Part shown: piece by piece, positions 54,149 to 61,038 of the stretch
Position numbering within the stretch: the first letter of the stretch is position 1
Layout of the letters: each line of letters opens with the position of its first letter
Source: a virus
IMG/VR virus record: IMGVR_UViG_3300014205_000222
Strand: one strand, 5' to 3'
DNA length: 64,000 nt
Made by a program: the position numbers and the translations under genes
Notes under the pieces: generated by a model
Told to the model about the DNA's origin: nothing
The model's database searches: none
What the model saw: only the letters and a program-made list of their open reading frames with translations

Positions 54149-56458
54149 TTATATATCTTCTGTGCTCGTCATAATATAATATATCATTGTCCCACCACGC
54201 TGTCCTTTTACCTCAATTTCTTTCAATTCTTTTGTCTCGTTTACCAACTGGTGAATTGCATCATCAAGATCTTTGCTTTTCATACGAACACGGCGCATAA
54301 GCATCCGCCTCGCGATTTTACCGCCGCGTTGTTTTATTGCAGATAAAATTTTCTTCTGGTCGTTTTCACTCTCTGAAAGCTCAACCATCTCGTAAATCTT
54401 CCATGCCATTGGCATAAAATAATTTTCAATGATGCGAATTGCCTCTTTCACATGTTCATCCCAAATGGTTATATGACCTTTATCCATCTCTTCAAGCGCG
54501 CCATAACGTCCTATAGTAAACAACATTGCCAATTTTAACGTGTGTATCTGTAATCGCGCAAACATCGATAGTTTTGGGTCATCTGAAAGTTTTGCCAGCG
54601 CATCGTTATGTTTAACACACCACTCGTTATAATATTCCATTGCGTCTTGTGTTAATTGAAATTTAACCGGTTCTTCCGAATGCGCGCTAAACAAAATCCA
54701 TGTATCGAGCAGTCTTCTTCTCAAATTTACTTCTTCGTGTATTGCATCAGGATTATACATCTTCATTACACGAACAGTTTTTGGATGGTTTGGATAAAAC
54801 CACAAATATCTGTAGAACCAACCACTCGTCAAATTTTCTACATCAGATGTTTTTTCGAATGTGTCAGGAGTTGTTGCCATAACCATGGTGATATATGGTC
54901 TTTTAATAACAAAATTCGTCTTTCCTTTTGTTTTTGAAGTTCTCAACCGTCTGCTGTAATCTTCCCCATCATATAAATCACACAACACATATCTCAAATC
55001 AGACATATAATTTCGTTTCAATCCAACCAGCAACTGTGCCGCTTCGTCTTTTATAAAGTATGCTTTAGGGGTTTCATCTAGAATCTCAACCAACGATTCT
55101 GGTGTAAATGATTTCGGCATCTCGCTTGTAGTAATCTCATTCTGATCCAATATTCGCTTTGCCAGTTTTATAGACGTGGTTCTTCGTGAAACAGAGCTCA
55201 AACCCAAGAAAAAACACCAAAGGTTAGAATAAATAAAATCGTTCTCCATCCGCAACACAGCCGCGCGCTGTGCCGCAATGGATAACATTGATAAACCAAG
55301 ACCATAATGATACTCGTTGTATGCGTCTGTTCGATTGGATGCCCACGTTACATATTGTGTTATAAAGTTATCTTCTTCCAAATGTAGTTCAAGTTTCGGG
55401 TTGGAACTAACCACATAATCTTCCAACTGCGAACCAACACTTTCATCATTTGTTTTTGATTGACTTTTATCATCAACGTCTCGCTTCAAACTTTCTATAG
55501 TTTCTGTCGGTATTGCCTGTGGTGGCGGGAATTTGTCAACCTTCATTTTCCGCTTATACCCAAGAGATGATAACTTGTCCGAATACCCATTATCCCACAA
55601 ATATTCTACAACTTTTTTGAAATATTCTGGAGGGACACCGTTTTTAAGATCCACACATTCCGCACCTATTGTCTGTGCAATCCACGCAATTGGGTCTCCA
55701 CCACTTTCGCACCTATAACAATAATATACATTCTTTGATGGATTAACACAGAAATTTGTCCCTGTAGTACTACCGTGGATTGGATGTGACCCCTGCCACT
55801 CATCACCACGTTGGGTTGCATTTATAGGGACTACAAAATCCTCTATCCGCAGTCCTAGTTGGTCTGTCAGAGAATTCCTAGAAAATTTGGCAGTATCTGG
55901 TATACTCTTTTTAAGTTCTCTGAACCGATTTGATTTAACTTTTCGAAACAGTACAGAATCAACATAATCTGGTGTTACGGATTTTAATGGTAAATTTCGA
56001 GTTATAACATATTTGTTACCACTCGGGTGCCAACTGCCGGGACCGACCGCAAACGCTCTGCAACCAGACCCATAAAATTCTCCGATGTGTATTTTTGCAT
56101 CGTTAATATCATAAAATGGTATTTTCTCGGGTATTCCATCACATTTAATATATAGATGGATTCCATTACCAGAGCCACTTTTAACAGTAAATGTGTCAAA
56201 ATCATCTATTATACCGAGTGTGGCAGCAGCACCAATATCGTCAATATCGATTACAGATATTCCGCCACGGGGCAAAATACCATAATTACCACCTTCAGAA
56301 ATCCAATTTACAAGTTCAATGTCATCCCACGCGTAGTTTCTCTCGTTTTGCCAATCTTTCTGGACTGGGATTTTATCGCGCGCAGCAACCTTTATAAATC
56401 TTGCTTCAGGTATACGCAATTGAACCGGTATTGGATAACTTGGGGGGGTATCAGCCAT
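54149..56458 (-). CDS. bifunctional primase-polymerase (PrimPol) domain protein with zinc-binding and C-terminal primase-associated domain
   Basis: N-terminal …GNYGILPRGGISVIDIDD…SGSGNGIHLYI…H… = archaeo-eukaryotic primase PrimPol motifs I-III; CYRCESGGDPIAW zinc motif; 769 aa. Confidence 0.8.
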   Translation of the reverse strand: MADTPPSYPIPVQLRIPEARFIKVAARDKIPVQKDWQNERNYAWDDIELVNWISEGGNYGILPRGGISVIDIDDIGAAATLGIIDDFDTFTVKSGSGNGIHLYIKCDGIPEKIPFYDINDAKIHIGEFYGSGCRAFAVGPGSWHPSGNKYVITRNLPLKSVTPDYVDSVLFRKVKSNRFRELKKSIPDTAKFSRNSLTDQLGLRIEDFVVPINATQRGDEWQGSHPIHGSTTGTNFCVNPSKNVYYCYRCESGGDPIAWIAQTIGAECVDLKNGVPPEYFKKVVEYLWDNGYSDKLSSLGYKRKMKVDKFPPPQAIPTETIESLKRDVDDKSQSKTNDESVGSQLEDYVVSSNPKLELHLEEDNFITQYVTWASNRTDAYNEYHYGLGLSMLSIAAQRAAVLRMENDFIYSNLWCFFLGLSSVSRRTTSIKLAKRILDQNEITTSEMPKSFTPESLVEILDETPKAYFIKDEAAQLLVGLKRNYMSDLRYVLCDLYDGEDYSRRLRTSKTKGKTNFVIKRPYITMVMATTPDTFEKTSDVENLTSGWFYRYLWFYPNHPKTVRVMKMYNPDAIHEEVNLRRRLLDTWILFSAHSEEPVKFQLTQDAMEYYNEWCVKHNDALAKLSDDPKLSMFARLQIHTLKLAMLFTIGRYGALEEMDKGHITIWDEHVKEAIRIIENYFMPMAWKIYEMVELSESENDQKKILSAIKQRGGKIARRMLMRRVRMKSKDLDDAIHQLVNETKELKEIEVKGQRGGTMIYYIMTSTEDI

Positions 56459-56461
56459 CTA

Positions 56462-58925: not shown

Positions 58926-59750
58926 TTACCATTCTACATCTGAATTTTCCAAAATTTTCGTGGTTGATTCAGACGGGCGACTATTTTTCTCTTCCGTGTA
59001 TACTTCTTCACGGGTCATCTGCCCGGCTACTTTCGGCTCTTCTGCAACAACAGCTTCGACGACAGCACCACTTTCGAGCCAGTCTTTTACCATTTTGCCA
59101 GTCTTTGCACTAGGTACAAAAATCATATCTCCAAAAATTCCTGTTCTATCCTTTGAGACAGTTGCAGTATGTGTATGGTCGAGTGTAAACACAATGGTAA
59201 ATTCATATTCGATACCATCACGTAATACGGGTGCAGTCCCAATTTTGGTAACCTTGAGTTTATTTGATGTGTTTTCAACCATATACTCCGTTTTCGACCG
59301 CATCGTAGCAACAACATGCATTCCGGAATTTATAATATATTCTAACATACGATTGTACAACGGAGTAACTTCTGCCCATGCAGCCCACGTGTTTGTGCCA
59401 CGTTTTTCAACAGCAGATTTAATCTCAAGAAGTCCACCTTCACCACTCCAGAACGGTGAAAGAGAATCGATGATTAAGACATCATAACCTTCAGACTCTG
59501 CAAGTTTTATCCCATCTATAAGTTTGTTCGGGGAATATGGTGCACTTATTGGAAGTGTGTCATAGTCTCCTAGGTGGCTATATAACTCAGCACTGTTCTG
59601 TTCTGTATCTATCAACGCGATTCGCTTTCCAAGCCCCATTGCAATTAAAATAGATGAATATGTCTTGCCAGAACCACTCGCGCCAATCACGGCTATTTTT
59701 GCGCGTGCCCTTTTGCGTTCAGCTCTGCGAAAACCAGCCATTTTAATCAC
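58926..59750 (-). CDS. RecA-like P-loop ATPase (AAA_24 / Sak4-like)
   Basis: Walker A VIGASGSGKTYSS, Walker B LIIDSLSP; ~270 aa typical of phage Sak4-type ATPases. Confidence 0.6.
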   Translation of the reverse strand: MIKMAGFRRAERKRARAKIAVIGASGSGKTYSSILIAMGLGKRIALIDTEQNSAELYSHLGDYDTLPISAPYSPNKLIDGIKLAESEGYDVLIIDSLSPFWSGEGGLLEIKSAVEKRGTNTWAAWAEVTPLYNRMLEYIINSGMHVVATMRSKTEYMVENTSNKLKVTKIGTAPVLRDGIEYEFTIVFTLDHTHTATVSKDRTGIFGDMIFVPSAKTGKMVKDWLESGAVVEAVVAEEPKVAGQMTREEVYTEEKNSRPSESTTKILENSDVEW

Positions 59751-61038
59751 CGCGTGGTGGAAGTATTGCGTGTGTTATAGCAGCATCTATAACAGCATCT
59801 GGCACAGAACCATCGATCTTCAACATTTTGCGAGCTTCGTCTACACTAAATGTCCCAATCGGCCTATCAAACGCACCGGCTATTGTAACCAGCTGACCAG
59901 AAATCTTTTCAATCAAATTTCTTCCAGTTTCGGTTGGCTGCGCTTTTGGAGCCTGTTGAGGAGCCTGTGGAGGAGCCTGTTGAGGAGCCTGTTGAGGAGC
60001 CTGTTGAGGAGCCTGTTGAGGAGCCTGTGGAGGAGCCTGTTGAGGAGCCTGTTGATGAGCCTGTTGAGGAGCCTGTTGATGAGCCTGTTCTTTATTGTAT
60101 GTCTCTAACGTAGTTGTAGTGTTCAAAAACGAAGAATCATACTCATATATTGCAAAAGTACGCAAATTAATAAAGTTTCCACGATCACCCGCAGTCAACC
60201 CACTGATTTCTCCAACACCGATAACCATTCTATCATTGATACCAGATTTTACCGATTTTGCCTGTTCATTTGGGTCAGGAGTTTCATTAGCTGCGCTTTG
60301 GCATACCCCATCAAAATCAACAATATCATAAATCGGTTTTCCGTATCTCTGTCGCTGTAATTGGAACACAACTGTATTTTTACCGTCCTTTTTCAGTGAT
60401 ATCCCGAGAACTGGAAGGTGCCGAAGAACTGTATCTTCAGTCGTTAAATATACTTCATGCTTACTATCACCAGTTTTATCTTCAAACTTTTTCAAAGGAT
60501 TGACCCAATTTACAATCCCACGCACAACAACAATCTGATATTTCTCAAGACTGTTGAAATCCAATGTATCTGGTGTTTTAGAAACGCGCAGAAGCCTTTC
60601 GATAACCTGATCACGGGTTATAGGTTCAAATTTTGAAACATCTGTTATAACATAATTGCTGTAATTGGCACTCTTCCGAACCTTTAACTCTACTCGTCCG
60701 GGAGATGGTATCTTGTTTACATCATAACTAGTAAGGGATTTGTGGTTCCCATCTAGAACCAATAAGGGAAATGTTACAGGTCGCTTCGTGCCATACACAT
60801 CACCCTGCCCGACACTGATGCCAACCACTGGCATATCATTTTTAGACTGTATTTTCTTGTTTATTTCGCTTTTTGCATATGAAACGACAGTTTTAAGCGA
60901 TGTGAAACGTTTCCATTTTTCCAAATTTTCTATAATTGTCTTTTCGACATCAATTCCCGCACCTATGGCTTCAACATAAATCGGGTCTTCTTTTATTTCA
61001 TTCAAAATCTTACCAATTTCCATATATATCCCATCCAA
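59743..61038 (-). CDS. hypothetical replication-module protein with QAPQQAP low-complexity repeat linker (431 aa)
   Basis: ORF track; central linker encoded by 15-bp tandem repeat. Confidence 0.5.
59948..60088. repeat. ~9 tandem copies of 15-bp unit GGAGCCTGTTGAGGA (variants GTGG/GATG), coding
   Basis: Direct reading; encodes (QAPQQ)n; antisense gives spurious LLRSLL ORF 59665..60108. Confidence 0.85.

Follow-up and report, generated by a model that had tools for sequence, protein, structure and literature searches.

Gene organization of the locus

The DNA described here is a 64,000-nucleotide (nt) stretch of IMG/VR virus record IMGVR_UViG_3300014205_000222, referred to as the window, and its positions 54149-61038 carry a module of six co-directional open reading frames (ORFs) on the minus strand. 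An earlier note, made from the sequence alone, had listed these ORFs as a phage-like replication and recombination module together with their catalytic motifs; all six are present where it placed them, and every motif it quoted is found in the translations. From gene 1 to gene 6 they encode a predicted tandem OB-fold protein, an AAA_24 ATPase, a DExH helicase, a basic protein of 89 amino acids (aa), an exonuclease and a primase-polymerase (Table 1). The gaps between consecutive genes are 1, 9, 22, 15 and 3 nt, calculated with the revised start positions of gene 1 (ATG at 61023), the ATPase (59741) and the nuclease (57199), which were taken from gene calls on an identical 181.6-kb contig and from the positions of ATG codons. 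The same gene calls place a seventh syntenic gene 36 nt past gene 6. Genes 1-6, and perhaps gene 7, form one tight operon. Gene 7 has no match in Pfam, PHROG, PADLOC or PDB, its PDB sequence search being uninformative, and it is syntenic in relatives at 26-39% identity.

The intergenic region 5' of gene 1 contains two TATA-like stretches that can be read from the sequence, TTTTTATAC at 61083-61075 and TTTTAAAT at 61046-61039, and a purine stretch, GGATGG, precedes the gene 1 ATG. Scans for sigma-70 promoters and terminators stayed at background level; such models are not applicable to archaea.

Table 1. Features of the module and of its surroundings (positions in the 64,000-nt window)
Feature	Position	Strand	Remarks
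Gene 1, tandem-OB protein, RPA/SSB-like (predicted)	59743..61023	-	426 aa from ATG 61023, 431 aa from TTG 61038
Gene 2, AAA_24 core-only RecA-fold ATPase (Sak4-like)	58926..59741	-	271 aa
Gene 3, superfamily 2 DExH helicase of UvsW/XPB/RadD type	57507..58916	-	469 aa
Gene 4, basic 89-aa protein	57215..57484	-	possibly winged helix
Gene 5, PD-(D/E)XK exonuclease, RecB/MGME1-like	56462..57199	-	245 aa
Gene 6, archaeo-eukaryotic primase (AEP) PrimPol, CHC2-type zinc ribbon, DUF3987	54149..56458	-	769 aa
Possible gene 7	53333..54112	-	259 aa, basic termini; same tight gene string, conserved
(QAPQ)n linker repeat of gene 1, 12-nt unit	59948..60089	-	in-frame tandem repeat
79-nt AT-rich intergenic region 5' of gene 1	61024..61102	-	candidate promoter, pattern-level only
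tRNA array	36585-52742	-	28 (ARAGORN) to 30 (Rfam) tRNA genes in 16 kb
CCA-adding enzyme	41598-43028	+	
Ro60/TROVE	45946-47472	-	
Metallophosphatase	45257-45919	-	
RlaP	21019-21837	-	
ART-PolyVal ADP-ribosyltransferase	51401-52000	-	typical mobile-element gene
Serine recombinase (resolvase)	19018-19551	-	typical mobile-element gene
DUF5131 (phage Gp37/Gp68-like)	27307-28029	-	typical mobile-element gene
DUF3821 (9e-54) + PGF-CTERM, 857-aa ORF	31073-33646	-	architecture of Methanospirillum hungatei S-layer protein
PCNA-like ORF	34475-35221	+	inside minus-strand block; overlaps minus-strand ORFs 34229-34597 and 34594-35241

Gene 1 is predicted to be a tandem OB-fold protein

In the numbering of its 431-aa form, the gene 1 protein consists of a helical N-terminal domain (residues 1-65), two oligonucleotide/oligosaccharide-binding (OB) folds (69-152 and 169-300), a linker (306-370) and a C-terminal domain (372-425), and it ends in the tail AILPPRGD. 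The AlphaFold model built from a 97-sequence alignment has a predicted local distance difference test (pLDDT) score of 89.5, with values above 95 in the folded parts and of 25-65 in the linker; an earlier AlphaFold2 run with 6 sequences reached a pLDDT of 57.7 and was not used for the fold search. The model contains a four-helix N-terminal domain, two beta-barrels with the strand order of OB folds, a disordered segment and a three-helix C-terminal domain. The OB-fold core is predicted with high confidence, and its best structural matches are RPA, SSB, LEF-3 and POT1, at low TM-scores of 0.17-0.27 when normalized to the query. The viral structure library BFVD yields no meaningful match for gene 1 (TM below 0.26).

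Sequence comparisons place the protein outside annotated families. A word-seeded search of 5.8 billion proteins detects just five homologs, and an exhaustive profile search collects 127 cluster representatives, 100 of them at E<1e-10; the family statistics given here come from the 97-member alignment. None of the 97 members matches the SSB or RPA families of Pfam, or any other Pfam family, and a single one matches any PHROG. Compared with PDB profiles, gene 1 gives best E-values of at least 0.024, none of them to OB proteins, and at least 1.5 against RPA chains. When its N-terminal 300 aa are compared by tblastn with 50,697 records of phages and archaeal viruses, nothing is returned at E<=1, and the IMG/VR copy searched contains no relatives. 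Two candidate relationships were rejected: BLASTP comparison with the annotated SSB of Alicyclobacillus phage MMB025 gives low-complexity matches only, and matches to the Gp2.5-like phrog_7011 (E 0.0019) and to GltJ both fall on the QAP repeat and are dismissed as compositional. As judged by sequence, gene 1 does not belong to the SSB/RPA families; the most it could be is an analogue of them in structure or a very distant relation.

The three-part architecture is a constant of the family, since 96 of the 97 members combine a core of ~300 aa with a linker of 15-168 aa (median 62) and a C-terminal domain of ~53 aa. The linkers are rich in E, P, A, K and D, and 14 members carry exact peptide repeats in them. 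Conserved positions include the aromatic residues Y105, Y126 and F185, together with R231.

According to work on phage HK620, an ssb gene usually neighbors sak4, and the C-terminus of SSB is required both for the binding of Sak4 to SSB-coated single-stranded DNA (ssDNA) and for the stimulation of annealing (PMC5928155). Alicyclobacillus phage MMB025 has an annotated SSB gene directly upstream of the AAA_24 gene of the closest type. Because gene 1 has an SSB-type architecture (core, tether and docking end) and because of the published sak4-ssb pairing, its best reading is that of a putative ssDNA-binding protein that would partner the AAA_24 annealase and be functionally analogous to SSB and RPA. 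The earlier note had proposed the 431-aa protein as the SSB or annealase partner. Two findings speak for that proposal: its fold, predicted to be a tandem OB, and its conserved place immediately upstream of the gene for AAA_24. The family is previously undescribed and looks like a new family of ssDNA-binding proteins.

An AAA_24 ATPase and a DExH helicase accompany gene 1

Gene 2 encodes an ATPase with a Walker A motif (GASGSGKT, residues 23-30) and a Walker B motif (VLIIDS, residues 91-96). Its match to Pfam AAA_24 (PF13479) scores 71.7 bits (cut-off 27; 9e-20) and covers profile positions 3-194 of 195. AAA_24 is the sole domain in its 271 aa, with no additional RecA-type N- or C-terminal DNA-binding domain, and its identity to phage proteins that carry the annotation 'RecA-like recombination and repair protein' reaches 49%. 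A PDB sequence search of gene 2 is uninformative. The designation Sak4-like, used in the earlier note, holds at the level of AAA_24; by its best PHROG, gene 2 would represent a sister group of Sak4 rather than Sak4 itself.

Gene 3 is a helicase with the motifs PTGGGKT (136-142), DECH (219-222), SAT and QTIGRALR (QxxGRxxR); it had been called a DEAH helicase, and although the helicase assignment stands, its box reads DECH and is of the DExH type. The protein matches ResIII (78.5 bits) and Helicase_C (44.2 bits) in Pfam and phrog_16 at 1.9e-77 (262 bits), and in PDB it matches XPBII (6e-26) and T4 UvsW (1e-21, over residues 20-439). Its scores fall far below the NCBIfam ortholog cut-offs for XPB (94 bits vs 610) and RadD (79 vs 720), and by these comparisons gene 3 belongs with the phage helicases of phrog_16 rather than among the orthologs of cellular XPB or RadD. 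It has matches in at least 5000 phage records, with identities of ~25-32% among the matches listed, and only a 25%-identical helicase in the IMG/VR copy searched. With T4 UvsW, archaeal XPB and bacterial RadD, gene 3 shares the ResIII and Helicase_C domains, Walker A and the DExH box, and its alignment with UvsW is full length, the N-terminal domain included. It differs from this group in the lack of cellular orthology by the NCBIfam cut-offs and in its low identity to phage helicases.

A small basic protein, an exonuclease and a primase-polymerase complete the module

Gene 4 encodes a strongly basic protein with 19 lysine and arginine residues against 5 aspartate and glutamate residues. No other gene of the module is as well conserved: orthologous loci show 81-88% identity for gene 4, compared with 50-77% for its neighbors. 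It has close homologs only, with no Pfam or PHROG match. The best PDB match of its profile is the DEP domain of P-Rex1, a winged-helix fold, which aligns at a weak E=0.07 over helix 3 and the hairpin or wing. The winged helix proposed for this protein is thus plausible but tentative, the DEP-domain match being what speaks for it. The JGI name 'Tfp pilus assembly ATPase PilU' attached to an identical 89-aa protein is a mis-annotation, ruled out by size and sequence.

Gene 5 matches phrog_298 'exonuclease' at 1.3e-18 and has no Pfam match. In a 5-sequence alignment that extends down to 27% identity, the invariant residues are H56, E87, D122, D135, K137, Q149 and Y153, and they include the nuclease motifs D122, D135-I-K137 and Q149-x3-Y153. 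The best PDB match is a weak one to MGME1 (E ~0.1), whose alignment falls on the catalytic motifs. Only one cysteine is present in the protein, and none is conserved in the alignment; lacking a four-cysteine Fe-S cluster, it is therefore not Cas4.

Gene 6 combines Prim-Pol (PF09250, 33.4 bits, cut-off 22.8), Zn_ribbon_DnaG (39.1 bits) and DUF3987 (PF13148, 94.2 bits, cut-off 27), and it matches the 'DNA primase' PHROGs 10514 and 3022 at up to 1e-25. The motifs DIDD (71-74) and SGSGNGIHLY (94-103) are both invariant in orthologs, and a zinc ribbon of the form H-x2-H...C-x2-C occupies residues 225-250. The DUF3987 loop at window positions 55175-55204 (residues 419-428) reads G-L-S-S-V-S-R-R-T-T and is the same in three orthologs. 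The DUF3987 domain of gene 6 aligns throughout with phage 'DNA primases' of these two PHROGs, such as gp58 of Arthrobacter phage Molivia and the protein of Stenotrophomonas virus Jojan60, and shares with them the loop L-G-x4-[ST]-R-x-[ST]-T and a D-E motif. These phage proteins differ from gene 6 in that they lack its AEP PrimPol N-terminal domain and the inserted DnaG-type zinc ribbon, and their loop reads SRKST where that of gene 6 reads SRRTT.

The sole match among 185,579 species genomes is a PrimPol 53% identical to gene 6, found on a 3.4-kb contig (L011, JBAZLE010000189.1) of a Thermoplasmatota metagenome-assembled genome (MAG). The binning of this contig is uncertain because it is so short. 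In the zinc ribbon of its PrimPol, the second cysteine pair reads C-H-R-D in place of C-x-R-C.

In-frame repeats recur in linkers

The linker of gene 1 contains the sole strong repeat array in the 64 kb, with 11.8 copies of a 12-nt unit at 94% matches and a score of 256 in Tandem Repeats Finder. This repeat breaks short-read assemblies, and loci L015 and L016 stop inside it, at their position 1. These loci, ENA k141_1355234 (64,019 bp) and Logan SRR18595300_30613, are independent public assemblies of the same element. In related locus L003, the ortholog of gene 1 carries another repeat at the same place, 8.7 copies of a 15-nt unit encoding APAVS (L003 8817-8946). The PrimPol of L003 has in addition a perfect 12-nt repeat of 4.9 copies, encoding PPSH, in the linker between zinc ribbon and DUF3987 (L003 13384-13442), a repeat not found in the window. 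Related locus L005 has neither the gene 1 nor the PrimPol linker repeat. As the repeats differ among the window, L003 and L005, they arose independently in close lineages, and in-frame repeat expansions recur in the linkers of this lineage. The QAP linker, which the earlier note had described as length-variable, does vary in the comparison between lineages, both in its length across the family and in its repeats.

The module is conserved in uncultured relatives

The gene order recurs on independent metagenomic contigs. All six genes are syntenic at 50-88% identity in related loci L003-L008, the contigs of the homologs from the word-seeded search, in the order SpoIIM-like gene, gene 1, AAA_24, helicase, 89-aa protein, nuclease, PrimPol and a gene of ~330 aa. 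At greater distance parts of this order persist. L012 (30-47% identity) keeps the tandem-OB gene, AAA_24, helicase, nuclease and PrimPol in order, and L010 (24-33% identity) keeps the tandem-OB gene, AAA_24 and helicase. The nuclease gene adjoins the tandem-OB gene in L009, and on the P0045 contig the helicase lies four genes downstream of the gene 1 homolog. The linkage of gene 1 to AAA_24 and helicase is frequent, not universal. Three isolated phages, among them Alicyclobacillus phage MMB025, were inspected around their AAA_24 genes, and none has the full gene order. The order had been called the classic replication core of tailed phages and plasmids; its components are indeed classic, but the exact order was seen only in uncultured relatives and is a trait of their clade.

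The module lies on a large mobile element with a probable archaeal host

A comparison over 16.8 kb finds the window 100% identical to JGI contig Ga0378408_0000108 (181,586 bp), of which it corresponds to ~35.0-99.0 kb. The IMG/VR copy searched has no exact match to the window, and the element is absent from it. The tRNA array (Table 1) is interleaved with the genes for the CCA-adding enzyme, Ro60/TROVE and the metallophosphatase, and RlaP lies further on; CCA occurs near the 3' end in only 5 of the 28 tRNA genes. Together, the tRNA array and these genes make up an island for translation and RNA repair, of a kind typical of jumbo phages. The window also encodes an SPFH protein, glycosyltransferases and proteins with PKD domains.

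Two ORFs bear on the host. The ORF with DUF3821 and PGF-CTERM has a local GC content of 0.44 in surroundings of ~0.36, and DUF3821 has been reported only from Methanomicrobiales (PMC11641113). This ORF has the look of an S-layer gene that the element took from its host, which makes it a clue to the host. The PCNA-like ORF passes the Pfam cut-off for PCNA_N alone (27.9 bits), with PCNA_C (18.9) and Rad9 (21.0) below theirs, and would be a divergent clamp. The 181.6-kb contig, the ~30 tRNA genes, and the PCNA-like and Methanomicrobiales-type S-layer genes argue for a large archaeal virus or extrachromosomal element. The element is thus a large mobile element or virus of at least 181 kb. An archaeal host is probable because of the DUF3821 and PGF-CTERM gene, the PCNA-like gene and the 53%-identical PrimPol in the Thermoplasmatota MAG, and by these markers a methanogen of the Methanomicrobiales is the most likely one. 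Where the earlier note took the whole window to be a virus or mobile element, the mobile element is borne out, but it may be either viral or plasmid-like, as no capsid or terminase gene was identified among the ORFs scanned.

Some further features of the window are recorded here as observations. Positions 1-10975 hold ~55 tiny plus-strand ORFs with almost no family matches, which converge at ~10975 on a minus-strand block that runs from 10978 to 64000. The GC skew changes sign at ~10975, and the junction is convergent (terminus-like), not divergent. Upstream of the operon, at 61103-63981 on the minus strand and in L014 at 1-5524, are genes for a SpoIIM-like membrane protein, an 86-aa protein, a 195-aa membrane protein and PKD proteins of 465-1069 aa. 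The sequence of the 195-aa membrane protein also matches the C-terminal part of the neighboring PKD protein. These upstream genes are syntenic in relatives and may encode envelope or adhesion proteins.

A proposed model of annealing-based recombination and its alternatives

We consider it probable that the six genes form one operon for single-strand-annealing recombination of the phage type and for replication restart, carried by a large extrachromosomal element or virus that is probably archaeal. In the scheme suggested by the protein families, from which each biochemical step and protein contact is taken, the PD-(D/E)XK exonuclease would resect DNA ends to single strands. The tandem-OB protein would coat the resulting ssDNA, and its flexible repeat linker and folded C-terminal domain may recruit the Sak4-like AAA_24 ATPase, which would anneal complementary strands in an ATP-dependent manner. 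The UvsW/XPB-like DExH helicase could then remodel branched intermediates such as D-loops and forks, by migration or by unwinding. The protein that combines PrimPol, zinc ribbon and DUF3987 would prime, and perhaps unwind, the invaded template, such that recombination intermediates become forks. A polymerase encoded elsewhere or by the host would perform the synthesis, possibly tethered by the PCNA-like clamp of the element. For the basic 89-aa protein, a role as a small accessory factor or regulator that binds DNA is probable.

Several observations weigh against this interpretation. HIN domains (which bind double-stranded DNA), anticodon-binding domains of tRNA synthetases and telomere-end binders score like RPA and SSB in the structural comparison with gene 1, and because of these similar scores the OB fold alone does not prove ssDNA binding. 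No AAA_24 gene was seen on the contigs L013, L020 and P0045, two of which are short, and no PHROG supports another annealase family downstream of the gene 1 homologs in L020 and L013. Gene 2 itself scores higher with phrog_1366, whose function is not annotated (6e-79, 267 bits), than with the Sak4 family phrog_124 (6e-10, 40 bits). In the DUF3987 loop, phage homologs and the MAG copy read [ST]-R-K-S-T, and gene 6 has arginine in place of the lysine, a change that may fall on a P-loop lysine; the SRRTT loop therefore makes the NTPase or helicase activity of this DUF3987 domain uncertain. No DNA polymerase was found in the window, in or beside the module. The earlier note had suggested looking for origin-type repeats nearby, and the search of 52.3-64 kb found no origin-like array, only the coding 12-nt array and short pairs at chance level. 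The scanned ORFs of the window, which include 30 further ORFs compared with PHROG or Pfam, yielded no identifiable gene for a capsid, portal or terminase, and neither did the annotated ~4 kb beyond position 1.

Two alternatives concern gene 1 and would leave the rest of the module largely as described. Given that POT1 and HIN domains are among its structural matches, gene 1 could be a specialized end or structure binder (POT1-, TEBP-, Cdc13/CST- or HIN-like) that caps or marks the termini or special structures of a linear element, with the operon still serving recombination and replication. We regard this as unlikely. The generic tandem-OB fold is common to all of these proteins, the TM-scores are low and RPA, SSB and LEF-3 score equally; the position of gene 1 directly upstream of a Sak4-type gene also fits the known sak4-ssb pairing. 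It is similarly improbable that gene 1 is a recombination mediator (RecO-, UvsY- or BRCA2-like) that loads the AAA_24 ATPase onto DNA coated by the RPA or SSB of the host. A match to RecO does exist, but it is limited to the OB domain (80-98 residues), the family-wide combination of core, disordered linker and terminal module is the architecture of SSB, and the operon holds no other SSB candidate.

The remaining alternatives would reassign the whole cluster. Combinations of nuclease, helicase and ATPase are frequent in defense islands, and the helicase has partial PADLOC matches, to models of type IV restriction helicases and to PbeA (102 bits), as might be expected of an anti-phage or anti-plasmid defense system carried by the element. 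This explanation is very improbable: the helicase match is a generic one to superfamily 2 and far weaker than that to phrog_16, 6 of the 7 proteins have no PADLOC match, a primase-polymerase and an SSB-like protein are not defense components, and in all relatives the module persists as a syntenic backbone. Least credible of all is a set of cellular DNA-repair paralogs in an archaeal chromosome, a possibility the earlier note had itself raised as one that domain searches or the flanks could reveal. The similarity of the helicase to XPB and RadD and the presence of PCNA-like, S-layer and glycosyltransferase genes in the window would agree with it. For five of the six genes, domain searches instead return phage families of DNA metabolism (for the helicase, 262 bits with phrog_16 against 94 with XPB), and both cellular helicase models stay far below their ortholog cut-offs. 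The flanks are not chromosomal either, with the tRNA array, the ~55 tiny orphan ORFs and the mobile-element genes ART-PolyVal, resolvase and DUF5131, and no housekeeping genes were found there; among species genomes, the only match is the short MAG contig.

Beyond the annealing operon on a probable archaeal element, which we favor, a more specific proposal is tentative at best: the element could represent an undescribed jumbo virus or virus-like lineage of Methanomicrobiales (at least 181 kb) that has a near-complete tRNA set, replicates in a recombination-dependent manner and uses a new, virus-specific RPA-like family, with two OB folds, a tandem-repeat linker that evolves fast and a folded domain for docking, in place of SSB as the loader of a Sak4-type annealase.

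Relation to known systems and implications

The closest parallels are the Sak4-SSB modules of HK620, phi80-alpha and PA73 (Hutinet et al. 2018, PMC5928155; Neamah et al. 2017, PMC5499656). In these as here, a core-only RecA-fold ATPase adjoins an OB-fold protein of the ssDNA-binding type, docking is likely to take place at the C-terminus of that protein, past a flexible linker, and an exonuclease is part of the same gene string. Gene 1 differs from the SSBs of these modules in that it is not a homolog of bacterial or phage SSB and in that each chain has two OB folds, helical end domains and a folded 53-aa C-terminal domain instead of a short acidic tip. Gene 2 lies nearer to phrog_1366 than to the Sak4 PHROG, and the setting is probably archaeal. 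In comparison with RPA of Pyrococcus abyssi (PDB 8aaj/8c5y) and baculovirus LEF-3 (7yny/7ypo), gene 1 has no detectable sequence similarity and no zinc motif, its linker is a nucleotide tandem repeat and the four-helix domain at its N-terminus is unique, with only a weak DEK_C-like match (E=0.024) as an exception.

The repeat linkers recall Borg elements of Methanoperedens, which reportedly carry amino-acid tandem repeats. These are likewise near-perfect in-frame repeats that yield disordered linkers rich in P, Q, A and S and that differ among close relatives. The window differs in having one strong array in 64 kb, phage-like gene content and another likely host.

The type of module is known from phage single-strand annealing and recombination-dependent replication; the SSB-like family and the probable setting on an archaeal jumbo element are new. 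Sak4-type recombination modules are not known to have been characterized outside bacterial phages, and the same logic is found here on a very large element whose probable methanogen host belongs to a group with very few known viruses. The linker repeats, expanding independently, show that disordered tethers can alter their length fast, and they explain why assemblies break at gene 1. The operon further exposes a tandem-OB family of ~127 clusters that has neither a Pfam nor a PHROG model and, by the search of phage and archaeal-virus records, no member in sequenced phages. If its members are ssDNA-binding proteins that recruit an annealase through a folded C-terminal domain, they would extend the principle of the SSB tail as a hub to a new architecture, and gene 1 proteins could provide recombineering tools for methanogenic archaea.

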